Shown here: one piece after another, positions 4,053 to 32,000 of the stretch
How the letters are laid out: each line of letters opens with the position of its first letter
Numbering within the stretch: position 1 is the first letter of the stretch
Source: Moraxella nasicaprae
Lineage (GTDB): Bacteria; Pseudomonadota; Gammaproteobacteria; Pseudomonadales; Moraxellaceae
Assembly (NCBI RefSeq): GCF_025643275.1
Contig: NZ_CP089977.1
Location: 990,001-1,022,000, forward strand
Length of the DNA: 32,000 nt
Direction of reading: 5' to 3'
Made by a program: the position numbers and the translations under genes
Notes under the pieces: model-generated
The model's database searches: none
What the model saw: only the letters and a program-made list of their open reading frames with translations
What the model was told of the DNA's origin: nothing

Positions 4053-4757
4053 ATGCGTTTAGATAAATTTTTAAGCAAAGCCACCGAGCTGTCTCGCAAA
4101 GATGCCAAAAAAGTCCTGCACGCAGGCGAAATCACCGTCAATGACATCGTTGTCAAAGACAGCAGTCATCACATCGACATCGCCAATGATGAAGTGCTAT
4201 GGGCGGGCGAACCTTTGTCTGTTGCTGAGGGTAATCGCTATATTTTACTGTATAAACCTGATGGTTTTGAATGCACCCTAAAAGCCAAAGAGTACCCCAT
4301 CGTCACTGATTTGATTGCCGTGCCAGAAGTGGCAAGCATTCGTATCGCAGGACGGCTTGATGTGGACACCACAGGAGCGTTGCTACTGTCTGATGACGGC
4401 TCTTGGCTACACCGTGTGACCAGCCCAAAACGCCATCAACCAAAACGCTATGAGCTGACCCTTGCCGACCCAATGGACGAAGCCGCCCAAGCACACGCCA
4501 TCAAACAAGTCGCCAATGGCATCTTATTAGAAGGCGAAACCGAAAAAACCCGTCCCGCCACACTGTCCTTCGTGGACGAGACACACGCTGTCTTAATTTT
4601 GACCGAAGGCAAATACCATCAAGTCAAACGCATGATGGCATATTTTGGCAACAAAGTCATCGAGCTACACCGTGCCAGCATTGGGACAATCACACTTGAT
4701 GGGCTAGAAATGGGCGAATGTCGCTTTTTGACCGCTGATGAAATTGCACAATTTTAA
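4053..4757 (+). CDS. rsuA: 16S rRNA pseudouridine synthase (RsuA family)
   Basis: An S4 domain begins at MRLDKFLSKATELSRKDAKKVLHAGEITVN. The catalytic motif GRLDVDTTGALLLSDDG and the segment GKYHQVKRM are present. I chose the ATG at 4053 because the family N-terminus begins at MRLDKF; the ORF track's 3999 start adds 18 non-conserved residues. Confidence 0.85.
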   Translation: MRLDKFLSKATELSRKDAKKVLHAGEITVNDIVVKDSSHHIDIANDEVLWAGEPLSVAEGNRYILLYKPDGFECTLKAKEYPIVTDLIAVPEVASIRIAGRLDVDTTGALLLSDDGSWLHRVTSPKRHQPKRYELTLADPMDEAAQAHAIKQVANGILLEGETEKTRPATLSFVDETHAVLILTEGKYHQVKRMMAYFGNKVIELHRASIGTITLDGLEMGECRFLTADEIAQF

Positions 4758-5797: not shown

Positions 5798-5903
5798 GGG
5801 CAAAATTGATGTTTCACATGAAACAATAGCAATCTTGGCGACAATCCTGCTTGGTTTTTTAGAAAATTTTTTACCCAAATCCACACTTTTTATCCGTCTT
5901 TGG

Positions 5904-19359: not shown

Positions 19360-19387
19360 TTGCCATTACCCCCCCCTGTGCTAGATT
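19360..19387 (+). promoter_or_regulatory. Candidate sigma-70 promoter with a poly-C tract in the spacer
   Basis: TTGCCA (19360-19365), a 16-nt spacer containing C8, then TAGATT (19382-19387). It lies about 95 nt upstream of the ATG at 19483. Confidence 0.3.
19369..19376. repeat. Homopolymeric C8 (G8 on the minus strand) tract in an intergenic region
   Basis: A direct count gives 8 consecutive C between the divergent ABC-F gene and the secreted-protein gene. Confidence 0.95.
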
Positions 19388-19482
19388 ATGTGTTTCTTAG
19401 TTTGTCAGGCTGCGATATTTGTTTAGGCGGTCAGCTTAGGCTATCAGCAATGCCAAATACAGTACAATCAACAGGAGTTGTG

Positions 19483-20193
19483 ATGAAAAATTTTACCATT
19501 GTCAGCTTGGCTTGTGCCAGTTTATGCCTTACCCCAATGACCGTCCACGCCAAAAAGCTAGACAACAAGGACAAGGAGCTGATTGTTGGCTTGGCAGGCG
19601 TCCTAATTGGCGGTATTCTATCAAACAAACAAAACCAGCAGCACGCCAAGCAACAACAAAACCAACAACAAAATCAGCAACAAACCATCTTTGACAACCA
19701 AGAAAAAGAAAAATTTGTCCGCCAAATTTACGAAAAAACGCTTGAATTGTCATTGGAACGACAAATAATGGCTGGCAGGGAATCTGAAAAAGACCTTGAC
19801 TTTATCCCCAACGCATCACTTAGCCCAAAATATATGAGCCGTGCCTTGCTATCGGTGGATTATCTACAACTTAAACACAGTCAAAGTCTTCCAGAATTCT
19901 ATGGCTTAGATGATTGCAATGAGAGTGGCTTTGATTTGTTTTGGGGTTATCAAGACTCAATTCTCTACCACCCCAATCATCAAATAGATTATACCGCCCA
20001 AGATGACGGCACGGTCAAAGTCGCCATCAAGCTGTATGACCAATGGAGTGATACATACCGTTTGCAAGATGTCATTTATCATCTGGTGCAAGAAGATGGT
20101 CAGTACAAAGTTGATGACATCGGCTATATCGACCACACTTATCAAGTTCGTATCCCAAGCCAAAAAGCAGCACTCACAAACTACTGTTCATAA
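19483..20193 (+). CDS. Hypothetical secreted protein with a Q/N-rich linker
   Basis: The ATG at 19483 is preceded by ACAGGAG. The signal peptide is MKNFTIVSLACASLCLTPMTVHA|KK. A low-complexity segment (NKQNQQHAKQQQNQQQNQQQ) is followed by a globular domain of about 170 aa. The ORF track's 19360 start is a TTG located within the putative promoter. Confidence 0.6.
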   Translation: MKNFTIVSLACASLCLTPMTVHAKKLDNKDKELIVGLAGVLIGGILSNKQNQQHAKQQQNQQQNQQQTIFDNQEKEKFVRQIYEKTLELSLERQIMAGRESEKDLDFIPNASLSPKYMSRALLSVDYLQLKHSQSLPEFYGLDDCNESGFDLFWGYQDSILYHPNHQIDYTAQDDGTVKVAIKLYDQWSDTYRLQDVIYHLVQEDGQYKVDDIGYIDHTYQVRIPSQKAALTNYCS

Positions 20194-25671: not shown

Positions 25672-26235
25672 ATGGGCAATAGACTTTCAAAAATCACCAC
25701 TCGCACAGGCGATGATGGCACAACAGGCATGGCAGACGGCAGTCGTCTTTCCAAAGCGGATTTACGATTTGATGCGATGGGCGTGATTGATGGGCTAAAT
25801 GCTCATATTGGGCTATTGCAAGCCTATCTTGACGACCCAAAAATAATCAAACAGCTTAGTGACATTCAGCATCGCTTATTTAATATCGGTGGAGAACTCG
25901 CCCTGCCCAACCATGCTGACATTGGCTACATCGCCATCACAGATACTGACATCATCTTGCTAGAAGAGCAGCTTGATGAGCATAACGACACCCTGCCTTA
26001 TCTTAAAGAATTTATTTTGCCAGCTGGGTCTGTTGCCACTGCACAGACGCACATTGCTCGTAGCATTTGCCGTGATGCCGAACGCACGCTGATTAAGCTG
26101 TCATTAAGAGACGGCAACATTCGCAAGCAAACCCTGCAATACCTAAATCGCTTGTCTGACTATCTGTTTGTACTGGCAAGAGTGGTGGTGCGTCTTGATG
26201 GCGGACAAGAAGTGCTATGGCAAAAGGATTTATGA
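25672..26235 (+). CDS. ATP:cob(I)alamin adenosyltransferase, PduO type
   Basis: The ORF is 187 aa. It has the N-terminal motif KITTRTGDDGTTG and the C-terminal motif YLNRLSDYLFVLAR. Confidence 0.9.
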   Translation: MGNRLSKITTRTGDDGTTGMADGSRLSKADLRFDAMGVIDGLNAHIGLLQAYLDDPKIIKQLSDIQHRLFNIGGELALPNHADIGYIAITDTDIILLEEQLDEHNDTLPYLKEFILPAGSVATAQTHIARSICRDAERTLIKLSLRDGNIRKQTLQYLNRLSDYLFVLARVVVRLDGGQEVLWQKDL

Positions 26236-26275: not shown

Positions 26276-29071
26276 TTAAAAAATACGAGACCTAAAATCC
26301 CCTCCAAAGTCATTTACACCTCGAGGATCGCTATTAAAGAATTTAAAGCCTAAGCATTTTATTTCTTGGTAATTTTTGGATTTGACTTCCTCCAAATATT
26401 GGGGATTATCCACATTGTCATTACCTGCTTTAAAGCTCACTTGACTATTTTTCTCCAAGGAAATCAAAGCCTTTTCTTTCCATTCATCGTGTGCCAATAA
26501 ATGTCCACCTTTTGGTTCAATCAAACATTGATAATACATTTGTTGATTGATAACATCATTGATGATTAGCATATAGTCAGGACTAAATCGTCTTCCATCC
26601 TCAAGGTTAAACAAATAATAATCCAATTCATTACGAATTAAAAAGATTTCAGCACCTTGATATTTTTGCTTTAATTCATCAATTTGACTATCAATAAATT
26701 TAACAAAACGCTTTTCTTCGCTTGTACCATAGTTTTCATTATAAGCATACCAATCTGATTGACTAATATCTAAACTAAGCTCAGTATTTTGATGATTGGT
26801 TTGTTCTTTTGCCCGCTCATTTGGCGTTATGTACTCTCGCTCACCCGTATTTTCGTTAATGCTTGGATAAGCCACCAAATAGATGTTTTTTTCTTGTTCA
26901 AAGACTTGTGCCAAAGGCTTTGGTCTAAACACTTTTGAACCAATGATTTGTGGCAAATGTTTGTCAATCAATTTGCGAATCTCTGGCAAAATAACATTAA
27001 CCAATAATTGCAATTTTTCATTGGCACTCAGCTCGTCAATATCCTTACCTTGTTCATAAGAAAAACAAATATCATATTTTGGCAAATAATCCTCAATCAA
27101 AGTATCAATGCTATCTAAATCAGTAATGTGATTTTTGATATTTTTAAACCAAAAAAAGCCGTTTTCTGCACCAATCAGGGCTTTTCTTAGTAAAGCACGA
27201 GAAAAAAATTCATCCGTTAGCCTGATATTTTTTTCTTGAATGCTAGCTTGTCGCTTATTTTGCTCAACATCGGTCAAGCCACGACTATGCAAACGATAAA
27301 AACTCGCTTTAATAGAGCGATTAAAGGCTTTATCAATATCGCTTTGCTCGGTTTTTTTACGATATTCTTGTTCATTAACCAATACAAAGCCGTGCTGATA
27401 AGTCTGACTTTGCATAAACGATGTTTTTAGACGAATGGTGCGTTTTTCCACGCCTTGATTGACAATGCCTTCGTCTAATAATTGCTTTTGCAATTCGTCC
27501 AAAAACACACCAGTTTTGACAAAATGATAATAAAAAGTTTCTAAGATTCTGCCATTTTCGGTAGGGGCGTGATCAAATTTTCTTTGATATTTTTTATTCT
27601 CAAGTTGCACCCCAAACCAATCTCCCTTTAAAAGAAAGTTTTTTGGTACATCATAAGGACATAATCTTGCTCCACGCCCAATCAACTGAATATCTTGCAA
27701 TGATACTTTTTTGCTTGCCGAAATATCAAAATGCACAATATCAAACAGACTTAATACATCCCAGCCCTCGTTTAATGCATTAACCGAAAAAATCGCCCGA
27801 ATGGTATTTCTGACATTGTCCAACAATGGCAACAAATCTGCACGCTCTTTATCTTTACTGTTATAAATCATCGTATTATTTTCAGCAAAGCGTTCTTTGA
27901 TATGCACAATAAATGTTCGTAAACCACGCTCATCATTTGTAGAACCCAAATGATTTTTAATCCATTCAAACATTTGACGGATTAAAACCTGACTGTCATC
28001 AAGCAAATCGGCTGGATGATTTTGCTGCAAATGTTCAAAGTCCTCAATACGCAAAGATGCAATCACACGATGAAAAAATTCACGATCTTTGGCACTTTGA
28101 GCGATTTTGATTGATTTAATTAACACAATCGGATTAATGATGGCTTTCATTTCTCGTTCAGCATACAGCCGACGATATTCGCTCAATGCCACCGCATTGA
28201 CAATCAAGCGTCTTTTTTGGTCTTCAATTTGCGTTTCTTCATTAAATAAAAACTTCACATCTTTACTAAAACCGTCTTTATTAAACTGCAAAAAGTCGTA
28301 TTTATAAACCAGTTTATCGCTATACTTTTTGTGAATGGCTTCATTTTGCAAATCCACAGTCGCCGTAAACTCCAACAACAGATTGTTTGGATTGGCATAC
28401 AAAACAGATTGTACGGCTTTTTCCCAGTTATTTTCATCAGCAACTTCGGTTTTTCTGCGAGTATCTACATTTAAACGATGAGCCTCATCGGCGATGATGA
28501 CCGTCTGATGATGCTGAAAATGTTCTGCGGTAATGGCATTTTCTTTGGGTTCGGTAATGCGTTTAAAAAGCAGTTGCGTGCTAAAAAACAAAAAGTTAAT
28601 ACCTTCTTTTTTGGTATCTTCAAATCGCTCTATGGCTTTTATAGGGACACTTTTACCATTTAATTTAACCGATTTTTTAAACAAAAATTTTTCAAAAGTG
28701 GAATCGGTAAAGTTTTTAATCGCCTGATCTTTAATTTGTACTTGATGCACCAAAAACACAAAATTACGATAGCCCTGTTCATACAGATACAGCACAATCG
28801 CTGCCATAGTCAGTGTTTTGCCAGAGCCTGTCGCCATATTAAACAGCAAATGTTTGGCTTTTTCTAAGCCTTCATTTTCATATAAAAAAATAAAGGCTTT
28901 GACGGCATTTAGCTGATATTCACGCAATGGTTTTGCCAAATTATCGCTAATAAAATTCGGTAATTCAAAATCAGCCAACCACGCTTGATAATCCTGACGA
29001 TCTTGAATTTTTTTAAACAAAAAATCATCCAAAGTATGCTTTAACTTCACTTTTTTACTGGTCTTAGTCAT
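26276..29071 (-). CDS. res: Type III restriction-modification system restriction subunit (Res; SF2 helicase plus PD-ExK nuclease)
   Basis: Helicase motifs are present: NMATGSGKT (I), IIADEAHR (II, DEAH), LLEFTATV (III) and QLIGRGARL (VI). A C-terminal nuclease motif is present (FSPDYMLII...LIEPKG). I chose the ATG at 29071 (MTKTSKK), which overlaps the mod stop in the sequence ATGACTAA. The ORF track's 29149 start lies inside mod. Confidence 0.9.
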   Translation of the reverse strand: MTKTSKKVKLKHTLDDFLFKKIQDRQDYQAWLADFELPNFISDNLAKPLREYQLNAVKAFIFLYENEGLEKAKHLLFNMATGSGKTLTMAAIVLYLYEQGYRNFVFLVHQVQIKDQAIKNFTDSTFEKFLFKKSVKLNGKSVPIKAIERFEDTKKEGINFLFFSTQLLFKRITEPKENAITAEHFQHHQTVIIADEAHRLNVDTRRKTEVADENNWEKAVQSVLYANPNNLLLEFTATVDLQNEAIHKKYSDKLVYKYDFLQFNKDGFSKDVKFLFNEETQIEDQKRRLIVNAVALSEYRRLYAEREMKAIINPIVLIKSIKIAQSAKDREFFHRVIASLRIEDFEHLQQNHPADLLDDSQVLIRQMFEWIKNHLGSTNDERGLRTFIVHIKERFAENNTMIYNSKDKERADLLPLLDNVRNTIRAIFSVNALNEGWDVLSLFDIVHFDISASKKVSLQDIQLIGRGARLCPYDVPKNFLLKGDWFGVQLENKKYQRKFDHAPTENGRILETFYYHFVKTGVFLDELQKQLLDEGIVNQGVEKRTIRLKTSFMQSQTYQHGFVLVNEQEYRKKTEQSDIDKAFNRSIKASFYRLHSRGLTDVEQNKRQASIQEKNIRLTDEFFSRALLRKALIGAENGFFWFKNIKNHITDLDSIDTLIEDYLPKYDICFSYEQGKDIDELSANEKLQLLVNVILPEIRKLIDKHLPQIIGSKVFRPKPLAQVFEQEKNIYLVAYPSINENTGEREYITPNERAKEQTNHQNTELSLDISQSDWYAYNENYGTSEEKRFVKFIDSQIDELKQKYQGAEIFLIRNELDYYLFNLEDGRRFSPDYMLIINDVINQQMYYQCLIEPKGGHLLAHDEWKEKALISLEKNSQVSFKAGNDNVDNPQYLEEVKSKNYQEIKCLGFKFFNSDPRGVNDFGGDFRSRIF

Positions 29072-30864
29072 GACGCTCTCCATAAAATGCCTTTGATAAT
29101 GCCTTGTCTGCATCCGATACCTGATAGCGAGCGTCATCAATATCTGCATAATTAAGATAAAGTTGATTTTCGTCCAAAATTTCTAGCAATTTATTTTTGC
29201 GTTCACTCAAATCCTCAATCAAATCATCGTCATCATCTTTAAACCACTCTTTAAAATCATCAGCTTCAAACCAAAACTTCAAAAAGGCATTTTCTTTCAT
29301 TTGACGATAAACGGCATTAAGTTCCGTTTTATTATTTGCCGATATAATTTGTTCCACAAAAAGCTGATTGTACTTTTTGAGCTCAAAATAGACAAACGAG
29401 CCGCCACCTTGCCAATTGACAGCCTTGCTAATACCGCCTTGTTCGCCATCTAATACCTTTAAAAGACGAGTTTTGGTAATATCCTCAATATAATCCATCT
29501 GTTCAATGCCAATCCAACGGCGACCCATTTTATGAGCGACCGCACAAGTTGTGCCACTGCCCAAATGATAATCTAGGACGATATCGTTTTCGTTTGTACA
29601 ACTTTGGATAATTAATTGAAATAGGCTTTCAGGTTTTGGAAAGTCAAAAACTTTATTATCAAACAATTTAATTAATTCTTTTGTTGCAACTTGATTTAAA
29701 TATTGATTATCAGCAGTATCTAAACTACCGATTAATTTAAATGTGCTTTTAACTTCATTTTTATATCTTTTAAAAATAAAACCACGCTCATTTTCGCCAT
29801 GTGATTTCTTAAAAACAATTTTTCCACTTGCTACTAAATCATTAAATGAACTTTCTGCAAAACGCCAACGCAAACCCGCATTTGGAACATCAATTTTTCC
29901 TGTATAGGGATTTTTAATTTCCATTAGATTTTTAGTTTTTCTACCATCATCTTGTGCTGTAGGGTCAGCAGACACCCAATCACCATTAGGATCATTATCA
30001 GGATTTTTATAATTATCAAATGTTTTTTCATCACCAATTAAAAATACATTTTCTTTTATTTTTGCAAAAATCAAAACATATTCATGTTGGATATTTAATC
30101 CCGTTTTAACATCATTGGCGGTTGATTTCGTTTTTCTAATCAACTCTCCAATAAAATTATTACGCCCAAAAATTTCGTCCATTAAAACTTTTAAATAAGC
30201 ATGCTCATTTTCATCAATTGAAACAAAAATCACCCCATCATCAGCCAATAATTCTTTGGCGATTTCTAGGCGGTTTTTCATAAAAACCAGCCACGATGAA
30301 TGGTTAAAATTATCATTATATTTAAAACTGTCATTACTGGTATTATAAGGCGGGTCTATATAAATCAGTTTGATTTTTCCACTTAATCGAGATTTAAGCG
30401 AATGCAAGGCAAGTAGATTATTGCCTTTGATGAGTAGATTTTGAGTTAGGTTATTATCATCATCAAAAAAATTGATTTGACTGACTTGACTTAGGTCTAA
30501 ATCAGGCGATAATGGTTGGTTGGTTGGTTGGTTGGTTGGTTGGTTGGTTGGTTGGTTGGTTGGTTGGTTGGTTGGTTGGTTGGTTGCCAATATTGTGTGC
30601 GTGATATTCAAAGCCTGTCAATACTTTTTGTTCAAAAAGTACATCGATGTCTTTGCCGTCCATTTCAAGGTGCAAAAAGCGTTCATTTCGTCCTGCATCT
30701 TCCTTATTCATGCCTGCTTCTAATACGCAGTCTTTAAACGGAAAATTCAAAACCACATCATTTTGTGTTTGTACAAAGCCTATACGCTCTGGATTGGTGC
30801 TATACAAACCAATTTTATTGCTATGCGTGGTGTAATGCCCTTTTTTCAATGAATTATCAGACAT
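29064..30864 (-). CDS. mod: Type III R-M DNA methyltransferase (Mod, N6-adenine, beta class). The gene is phase-variable and is frameshifted (OFF) at the repeat count seen here, so it would be annotated as a pseudogene.
   Basis: The ATG at 30864 has an AGGAG Shine-Dalgarno sequence (30873-30877). The N-terminal region carries the conserved Mod motif [15 protein letters not shown]. This frame reads into the CAAC tract and stops at the TGA at 30504-30502. The methyltransferase body runs from 30611 to 29064 in another frame and carries [25 protein letters not shown] (motif IV) and [10 protein letters not shown] (motif I). The span is 1801 nt, which is 3n+1. Confidence 0.9.
30513..30586 (-). repeat. 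Tetranucleotide repeat (CAAC)18 (GTTG on the + strand) inside mod
   Basis: A direct count gives 18 GTTG units from 30515 to 30586, and the periodic tract spans 30513-30586 (74 nt). It encodes NQPT repeats in all three frames. Confidence 0.97.
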
Positions 30865-30883
30865 ATTATATACTCCTGTTTTT

Positions 30884-30922
30884 GTAAAAATCAAAACAGA
30901 CCAATAAGCATTGATCTGTTTT
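30884..30922 (-). terminator. Rho-independent terminator after argH
   Basis: On the minus strand the sequence reads AAAACAGAtcaatgcttattggTCTGTTTTgaTTTTT. It lies between the argH stop (30936) and the mod ATG (30864). Confidence 0.6.
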
Positions 30923-30935
30923 ATCAATCTTAAAA

Positions 30936-32000
30936 TCAAGCAATCCGCTCTCGCCCTTTGGCAATCGCCAATTTTACCGCCTGTGGGGCTGTACCGCCAA
31001 GATGGTTACGAGCGTTTAATGAACCTTCAAGGGTCAAACACTCAAACACATCATCGCCAATCAAATCACTAAATTGCCTTAATTCATCAAGCGACAATTC
31101 TGCCAAATCCACGCTTTTTGCCACGCCAAGCCCCACAGCTTTACCCACGACTTCGTGAGCGTCCCGAAACGGCAAGCCTTTTTTAACCAAATAATCCGCC
31201 AAATCGGTGGCGGTGGCATAGCCTTTTAAGGTCGCTTGTCGCATATTTTCGGAGTTTGGCACAAGGTTTGGGAGCATATCGGCAAACGCCAAAAGCGAAC
31301 CTGTCAAAGTATCCACAATGTCAAACAAAGGCTCTTTGTCTTCTTGATTGTCTTTATTATATGCCAACGGCTGATTTTTCATCAAAGTCAAAAGCGTGGT
31401 CAAATCGCCAAATACTCGTGCCGCCTTGCCTCGTACCAGCTCTGGCACATCAGGATTTTTCTTTTGGGGCATAATAGATGAGCCTGTACAAAAGCGGTCA
31501 GGCACTTGTACAAAGTTAAATTGAGCCGACATCCACAAAATAATCTCTTCGCTCATTCTGGATAAATGCATCATCAAAATGCTGGCGGAGCTTGCAAATT
31601 CAATGGCAAAATCACGGTCAGAAACTGCGTCCAGCGAGTTTTGGCAAATGCCTTCAAAACCCAAAAGACGAGCGGTCATCGTACGGTCAATCGGATAAGT
31701 CGTGCCAGCAAGGGCGGCACTGCCTAGTGGCATTTGGTTAATTCTTTTACGAGTGTCCGTCAATCTTTCACTATCACGCACCAGCATTTCAAACCACGCC
31801 ATCAAATGATGGGCAAAGCTAATCGGCTGGGCGGTCTGTAAATGGGTAAAGCCTGGCATAATGGTATCGGTGTGCTTGTCGGCAAGGTCAAGCAGTCCGC
31901 TTTGCAGGCGTTTGAGTAGTGCCAAAATGTTGTCGGTCTCATCTCTTAGCCATAGGCGAATGTCGGTCGCCACTTGGTCGTTGCGACTTCTGCCCGTGTG
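30936..32000 (-). CDS. argH: Argininosuccinate lyase (5'-truncated by the window edge)
   Basis: The reading frame is open to nt 32000 ([17 protein letters not shown]). The fumarate-lyase signature [16 protein letters not shown] is present. The ORF track's 31973 start is an internal GTG. Confidence 0.95.

Follow-up and report, generated by a model that had tools for sequence, protein, structure and literature searches.

The mod gene of a restriction-modification (R-M) system of Type III in Moraxella nasicaprae carries a long run of CAAC units near its 5′ end, and the question that the locus raises is whether this run acts as an ON/OFF switch and, if so, in which state the gene was captured. 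We analyzed the window, a 32,000-nucleotide (nt) stretch of the M. nasicaprae genome (contig NZ_CP089977.1, positions 990,001 to 1,022,000), in which mod and the res gene that follows it are both read from the minus strand. The evidence set out below makes it very probable that mod and res form a Type III R-M system that is phase-variable, with a slipped-strand ON/OFF switch, and that the system was captured with mod OFF.

Tandem Repeats Finder (TRF) reported a period-4 array at positions 30513-30586 (18.5 copies, 100% matches), which on the coding (minus) strand contains a perfect (CAAC)18 simple sequence repeat of 72 nt at 30515-30586, the predicted slipped-strand switch. No other short-unit repeat tract was reported by this program in the 32-kb window. 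When a 6-unit CAAC probe was run with up to 2 mismatches, the 14 overlapping matches obtained all fell within the mod tract, and 0.00 matches were expected from 100 dinucleotide-preserving shuffles. The unit of 4 nt is not a multiple of 3 and the tract lies inside the mod open reading frame (ORF), one of the two features by which phase-variable mod genes were recognized here after Atack et al. (2018; PMC5909438), the other being a tract length that varies among isolates or inside a population, with both ON and OFF frames. Measurable switching from a 3-unit tetranucleotide tract is cited in that survey, and (CAAC)18 is far longer than the short tracts already counted there as phase-variable.

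The consequences of the tract length follow from the reading frames. Frame 0, from the ATG at 30864-30862, reads MSDNS...FPFKDCVL...NIG, with FPFKDCVL at 30744-30721 on the minus strand, upstream of the tract, then (NQPT)n and TIIA, and it ends at the TGA 30504-30502. As deposited, this OFF-state 5′ ORF (30502-30864, minus strand) encodes a product of 120 amino acids (aa). Frame +1, in which the methyltransferase body is written, is open from position 30611 through the 18-unit tract to the TAA 29066-29064. The (CAAC)18 tract translates as NQPT in each of the three frames, and beyond it one non-productive frame is closed by its 4th codon (IIA*), the other by its 6th (HYRLI*). From 30864 to 29064 the span is 1801 nt. 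In-silico tracts of 17 or 20 units yielded a single ORF of 598 or 602 aa, respectively, and tracts of 16, 18, 19 or 21 units led to a stop after 119-124 codons.

These results agree with what the initial annotation had read from the letters, namely 18 units out of frame, a methyltransferase body in another frame, fusion of the two frames at 17 or 20 units over a 1801-nt span, NQPT in all three frames and termination of both non-productive frames within 7 codons. Its count of five codons from the tract to the TGA is also exact, provided that the codon straddling the tract end is included. OFF here describes the assembled consensus alone.

The proposed start is well placed. A Shine-Dalgarno sequence (AGGAG, 30873-30877, minus strand) is present 8 nt upstream of the ATG. 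The pre-tract segment comprises 92 codons and is ∼70% identical at the aa level to Moraxella and Acinetobacter orthologues, in which (e.g., loci L001, L033 and L004 of the retrieved set) the same N-terminus is joined in frame to the methyltransferase body. For the 88-92 pre-tract codons, threaded on the aligned proteins, the comparison with five orthologues gave 40-48 differences at third codon positions, against 19-23 at first and 15-18 at second positions. This excess at third positions marks the pre-tract segment as a translated frame and, on the codon pattern, it is under purifying selection in frame 0. The start with AGGAG assigned in the initial annotation is therefore borne out both by the codon-position pattern and by the in-frame fusion seen in orthologues.

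PF12564, the ModA-type N-terminal domain, was not matched by the 93-aa N-terminus, even at E ≤ 1. The description of FPFKDCVL as a conserved Mod N-terminal motif, made in the initial annotation for frame 0, was upheld by direct alignment to homologues alone. Alternative ATG starts in other frames have been described for Haemophilus influenzae mod. Here, the other two frames contain no ATG after the last stop preceding the tract, and none that reads into it.

The methyltransferase body (29064-30512, minus strand) ends at the TAA mentioned above. It contains DPPY (30356-30345) and HLGSG, a variant of FxGxG (29567-29553), both in frame +1; the initial annotation had placed them in a different frame from the start. 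In the repaired protein the two motifs fall at residues 169 and 432, respectively, with the recognition domain between them, the order that characterizes a Type III Mod. The repaired Mod matched Pfam N6_N4_Mtase (2.1e-48), PADLOC MTase_III (1.6e-154) and the Mod chains of PDB entries 6k0w (8.5e-95) and 4zcf (EcoP15I Mod, 4.5e-35). Apart from the frame itself, neither a stop nor an extra frameshift was present in the 1.45-kb mod body.

Downstream, res (26276-29071, minus strand) is intact and encodes a protein of 931 aa that matched Pfam ResIII (5.6e-29) and PADLOC REase_III (3.1e-103). Its ATG at 29071 is preceded by GGAGAG, 4 nt upstream, and overlaps the end of mod by 8 nt. The protein has the TGSGKT and DEAH (28489-28478) motifs and a C-terminal PD-x19-EPK nuclease motif (from 26581), and no lesion was found in 2.8 kb. 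An adjoining, co-oriented res gene with helicase and PD-(D/E)xK motifs identifies the pair as a Type III R-M system. It is of a known class rather than a novel system, as the initial annotation had judged, on the Pfam, PADLOC and PDB matches and the intact res. The absence of any lesion beyond the frame in the mod body, together with the retention of the Res motifs, argues for a reversible switch rather than decay.

Public annotation does not reveal this arrangement. The post-tract Mod is 100% identical to GenBank UXZ05809.1 of M. nasicaprae, which is annotated as a 447-aa protein starting at TTG 30407 (29064-30407, minus strand). That start falls inside a conserved segment that precedes DPPY in all homologues. 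UXZ05809.1 is therefore truncated and is not linked to the 120-aa ORF or the repeat, so that the phase-variable design is hidden.

The mechanism that we propose is as follows: (i) slipped-strand mispairing at replication would add or remove 4-nt units in (CAAC)n; (ii) whenever n = 2 mod 3 (14, 17, 20, 23, etc.), the segment that begins at ATG 30864 would be joined to the body, giving a Mod of ∼600 aa with an (NQPT)n linker; (iii) in this ON state Mod would methylate a short asymmetric site, and Mod-Res complexes would restrict unmodified DNA; and (iv) in the OFF state (18 units) only the 120-aa N-terminal peptide would be made, with no methyltransferase and with Res inactive in the absence of Mod. 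Res requires Mod for DNA recognition. An OFF cell would therefore show neither methylation nor restriction, and one slippage event (loss of one or gain of two units) would restore both. Expression of res is probably also lower in the OFF state, because the res start overlaps the end of mod and by analogy with modM3, where the res transcript is 5.5-fold lower in ModM3 OFF (PMC6902483). N6-adenine methylation of a short asymmetric site in M. nasicaprae is likewise predicted by analogy with the modM, modA and Neisseria systems.

The tracts found in orthologues are in keeping with such a switch. Among 80 related loci, retrieved by a scan of one genome per species, several orthologues have repeats at the equivalent site, ∼265-275 nt after the start. 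M. cuniculi DSM 21768 has (CAAC)28 in frame (L001, 4267-4378), and a second M. cuniculi genome, LR134343, has (CAAC)21 out of frame (L081, 1411-1494), its mod being called as two genes (123 aa and 470 aa). Tract length and frame thus vary between strains of one species. Moraxella sp. ATCC 23246 (L033) has 19 CAAC units in frame, and in M. canis a CAAC-type tract is broken by a run of Ns. Other units occupy the same linker, as in Moraxella sp. RCAD0137, with (CAATCAG)17 (L082, 1766-1884), and in a Rhodothermales metagenome-assembled genome, with G12 (L005, 4276-4287). Acinetobacter genomosp. 15BJ carries (GCACA)16 out of frame (L014, 4275-4354), and a near-identical gene of A. tandoii has (GCACA)3 in frame (L004, within 4241-4400). 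Such a distribution points to phase variability having arisen repeatedly and independently at a single permissive linker. Switching in M. nasicaprae is supported by this comparison with orthologues, from which, together with the modM, modA and Neisseria systems, we infer it for the species.

Although the 19 units keep the ATCC 23246 mod (L033, 3998-5194) in frame, its ORF stops after 399 aa, whereas similarity extends to position 5828. The early end may reflect a second lesion in the region of the recognition domain or a sequencing error.

Several observations weigh against the switch reading, or against parts of it. The 18-unit count comes from one assembly consensus and may be a miscount. 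Exact look-up of the 447-aa Mod, the 931- and 957-aa forms of Res and the 120-aa OFF peptide returned no further M. nasicaprae assemblies, and two metagenome scans (5′ flank plus tract start; tract end plus 3′ flank) gave no match. A consensus scan for sigma-70-like promoters gave 19 sites, as against 19.6 in shuffled sequence; its best site overlaps the start codon, and no promoter was assigned. Low-level initiation might occur at TTG 30611 or 30590, both located upstream of the tract in the frame that 18 units leave open, although a Shine-Dalgarno sequence is lacking from both. A downstream regulon (phasevarion) in M. nasicaprae would be pure extrapolation from the modM, modA and Neisseria systems, and with res intact the locus may simply be a switchable defence system.

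Three other accounts of the locus were weighed against a slipped-strand switch captured OFF. The one that survives best, although we consider it unlikely, is that the 18 units were miscounted in sequencing or assembly, or represent the consensus obtained from a mixed culture, so that the true majority would have 17 or 20 units and be in frame; in that case the switch design would stand and the OFF call would fall. Long perfect tetranucleotide tracts are hard to size, as the Ns in the M. canis assembly illustrate, and M. catarrhalis cultures are mixtures of 34-37 units (PMC6902483). The tract in the window is clean, however, with no ambiguity, and the 447-aa GenBank call indicates that the deposited sequence has the same frame.

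Less likely still, and in our judgment very improbable, is constitutive production of Mod from TTG 30407 (447 aa) or, in frame +1, from TTG 30611 or 30590 (515 aa), with a repeat that exerts no control. The open +1 frame and the 447-aa product called by the Prokaryotic Genome Annotation Pipeline are compatible with this, as is a promoter-like site, TTGACA-N18-CACAAT (30621-30592, minus strand), within mod just upstream of the repeat, whose −35 hexamer is perfect. TTG 30407, like the two upstream codons, is devoid of a Shine-Dalgarno sequence, however, and a product begun there would lack the first part of the segment that is conserved before DPPY. Moreover, protein-level conservation of the pre-tract codons is seen in frame 0 and not in +1. 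The TTGACA is also present in Moraxella orthologues, where it encodes the conserved V-L-T of the K-V-L-T codons that account for it, and promoter-like sites occur at chance frequency; the site is probably coincidental, although an internal transcript could arise from it. In M. catarrhalis, an out-of-frame tract was accompanied by no detectable ModM3 (PMC6902483).

The least probable account is that mod is a pseudogene in decay, within an R-M cassette gained by horizontal transfer, and that its repeat is frozen and its frameshift permanent. It draws on the low GC content of the cassette and on the early end of the ATCC 23246 ORF, which indicates that lesions occur in the family, but it is opposed by the lack of a second lesion in mod or res, by the single slippage step that restores the frame, and by a tract that is 100% perfect over 72 nt, which is expected only with ongoing slippage that keeps it homogeneous. 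A phase-variable system, captured with mod OFF in the assembled consensus, remains by far the best supported account of the locus.

The allele itself, which the initial annotation had proposed to align with known modM and modA alleles, proved to be a new one. The target-recognition domain (29649-30161, minus strand; ∼171 aa) is central in Mod and shares 72-73% aa identity (123-124 of ∼170 residues) with the corresponding domain in a ModA cluster of H. influenzae. With the Moraxella and Acinetobacter relatives that share the Mod framework, it has only 24-37% aa identity and no nt similarity. The framework (N-terminus, pre-recognition core and C-terminal region), in contrast, is 74-83% identical at the nt level to the nearest Moraxella and Acinetobacter genes, with ∼70% aa identity in the N-terminus and ∼68% in the C-terminal region. 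Judged from these alignments, Mod is a mosaic of a Moraxella/Acinetobacter-like framework and an H. influenzae ModA-like recognition domain. No domain closer than the H. influenzae ModA cluster was found among the top matches of a search of 5.8 billion proteins (Mod itself aside), and on this ranking the M. nasicaprae recognition domain is a new allele.

Among the members of this H. influenzae ModA cluster are a protein fragment of strain 10810 and an M. nonliquefaciens protein that is nearly identical. Serotype b strains belong to mod group 2 (Fox et al., 2007), by which grouping the 10810 allele is probably modA2 (M.Hin723I). ModA2 methylates 5′-CCGA(m6A)-3′, and the site recognized in M. 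nasicaprae is possibly related, by analogy, to this 5′-CCGAA-3′ site; with 72-73% identity, far below the level of a shared allele, it may differ from that of ModA2. The M. nonliquefaciens protein (P0140, 672 aa) is of ModA type and full length, and it clusters with H. influenzae ModA sequences at 90% identity. This observation suggests that an entire modA gene passed recently between Haemophilus and M. nonliquefaciens, a Moraxella of the human nasopharynx.

A broader proposal joins these elements: a new specificity allele, whose domain shares its lineage with that of a Pasteurellaceae ModA (probably ModA2) and is set on a Moraxellaceae framework of modN/Acinetobacter type, with a linker that is a hot spot for repeats and with control of a regulon in M. 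nasicaprae. Taken as a whole it is tentative, and we stop short of calling it probable. If it were true, (i) exchange of recognition domains across mod gene families and bacterial families would be documented; (ii) the linker after the ∼90-aa N-terminus would be a general hot spot for making Type III mod genes phase-variable; (iii) at least 4 repeat units (CAAC, CAATCAG, GCACA and poly-G) would have been gained independently there; and (iv) the M. nasicaprae switch would govern an unstudied regulon in a respiratory bacterium of goats.

The setting of the cassette differs from that of its relatives. The mod-res pair forms a low-GC island (26276-30900; GC 0.34-0.37 by the composition profile vs. 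0.43-0.50 in the flanks). It lies between a cob(I)alamin adenosyltransferase gene (25672-26235, plus strand) and argH (30936-31973, minus strand), both assigned by Pfam, and housekeeping neighbors (argH, a murC-like ligase gene, gshA and dsbB) have the flank GC of 0.43-0.50. Between mod and the stop codon of argH, a consensus scan found a terminator-like hairpin with a T-run (30892-30923, minus strand), which marks the cassette's upstream boundary; such sites are no more numerous in the region than in shuffles. The res gene is ∼75% identical at the nt level to those of Moraxella orthologues. No synteny was seen by tblastx between the flanks and the corresponding loci of M. cuniculi, M. canis, ATCC 23246 and Acinetobacter, and on this account a siting of mod at an R-M locus conserved in Moraxella was rejected. 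The low GC content, the non-syntenic flanks and relatives on Acinetobacter plasmids make the mod-res cassette look horizontally acquired.

Related mod genes are present on large plasmids of A. seifertii and A. proteolyticus. They match in two pieces, each annotated as "site-specific DNA-methyltransferase," and may be further out-of-frame, repeat-bearing copies.

Two other features of the window bear repeats. A 2050-aa autotransporter of the IgA1-protease/SPATE type (7313-13465, plus strand), with Peptidase_S6 (1e-43), pertactin and autochaperone domains, has internal, imperfect Glu/Lys/Arg-rich tandem repeats at 10307-11856 (TRF periods 42, 87 and 324); by its domains it is a candidate host-interaction factor. 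A 12-nt repeat, CAACAACAAAAC, is present in 2.8 copies at 19651-19684 in a 277-aa ORF (19360-20193, plus strand) without a Pfam match. The 12-nt unit is a multiple of 3, so changes in its copy number would not shift the frame of this ORF.

Among mucosal bacteria adapted to a host, phase-variable Type III methyltransferases are a well-documented class. Switching of Mod splits a population at random into methylated and unmethylated cells and alters barriers to phages and DNA uptake, and in several pathogens it also alters the expression of surface and virulence genes. The locus described here extends the list of phase-variable Type III mod genes to a recently named nasal species of goats, corrects a database annotation (the 447-aa protein) and supplies a new recognition-domain allele. 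Understanding of the mechanism is unchanged, since the locus is a new example of a thoroughly characterized class. The literature searched contained no description of M. nasicaprae mod, nor of a phasevarion in M. nasicaprae or other animal Moraxella.

Three known systems were compared with the locus as its closest counterparts. In one of them, the archetypal Type III enzyme EcoP15I, Mod is also a DPPY...FxGxG N6-adenine methyltransferase, and Res, a subunit with helicase and nuclease functions, is dependent on Mod. The overall similarity is distant, however, and EcoP15I, unlike M. nasicaprae mod, has no repeat tract and is not phase-variable.

The modA genes of Haemophilus and Neisseria, the prototype of phasevarions, which have been shown for ModA alleles as well as for ModM2 and ModM3, are also Type III mod genes with a tetranucleotide tract in the ORF. 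FPFKDCVL precedes the tract in both. Their repeats are AGCC or AGTC, whereas M. nasicaprae has CAAC, and their N-terminus is longer and contains PF12564. The H. influenzae ModA C-terminal framework is only ∼54% identical to that of M. nasicaprae Mod. By these features M. nasicaprae mod is not a member of the modA family, with which only the recognition domain and FPFKDCVL are in common. In addition, the system of modA2 strains with a mutated res was proposed to have become a dedicated regulator (Fox et al., 2007); with its intact res, the M. nasicaprae system has not taken that course.

The remaining systems compared are modM and modN of M. catarrhalis (Mca25239IP and Mca23246IIP; Seib 2002; Blakeway 2014, 2018), Type III mod-res operons of the same genus. 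Both genes carry (CAAC)n in the ORF (PMC6241649), in its 5′ part as in M. nasicaprae, and both have conserved N- and C-terminal frameworks flanking a variable central recognition domain. ModM3 is ON at 36 CAAC units and OFF at 37 (PMC6902483). The low GC content of the M. nasicaprae cassette recalls that of modN (listed at 36.5%). The likeness to modM drawn in the initial annotation holds to the extent that the gene is a CAAC-tract Type III mod in Moraxella, but it does not extend to membership of modM in the strict sense.

This comparison was made through published primers and literature figures. The primers flanking the modM repeat (Mcmod2F and McmodrepR2) had no match with up to 5 mismatches in the mod region of the window, apart from which one spurious match was seen at 15190, and none at this threshold in the M. 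cuniculi, M. canis and ATCC 23246 loci. No M. catarrhalis entry was among the listed matches of either a contig pattern scan or a framework-only protein search. Outside the recognition domain, nt identity among modM alleles is 91-97% (PMC6241649), whereas that of the M. nasicaprae framework to its counterparts in M. cuniculi, M. canis and ATCC 23246 is 74-83%. From this figure and the missing primer sites, M. nasicaprae mod is, by indirect judgment, not a modM allele in the strict sense. Nor does its recognition domain appear to reach the level of at least 95% nt identity that would assign it to modM1-6, as gauged from the ranking of matches in the 5.8-billion-protein search: an identical deposited ModM domain would outrank the ModA matches at 72-73%.

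Relative to its Moraxella kin, the M. nasicaprae locus stands apart in its site, next to argH and with no flanks in common, and in a recognition domain unrelated to those of the relatives retrieved. With ATCC 23246 (L033) it has in common the N-terminus and post-tract sequence as well as the position of the tract. Strain ATCC 23246 has both modM1 and modN1 (PMC6241649), and L033 is probably modN1 rather than modM1, by elimination, since the modM primer sites are absent from it. Between M. nasicaprae and L033 the framework is 74-79% and res 75% identical at the nt level, with the tract at the same position, and the rule of Blakeway 2018 assigns genes to the same system at >70% nt identity to the reference.

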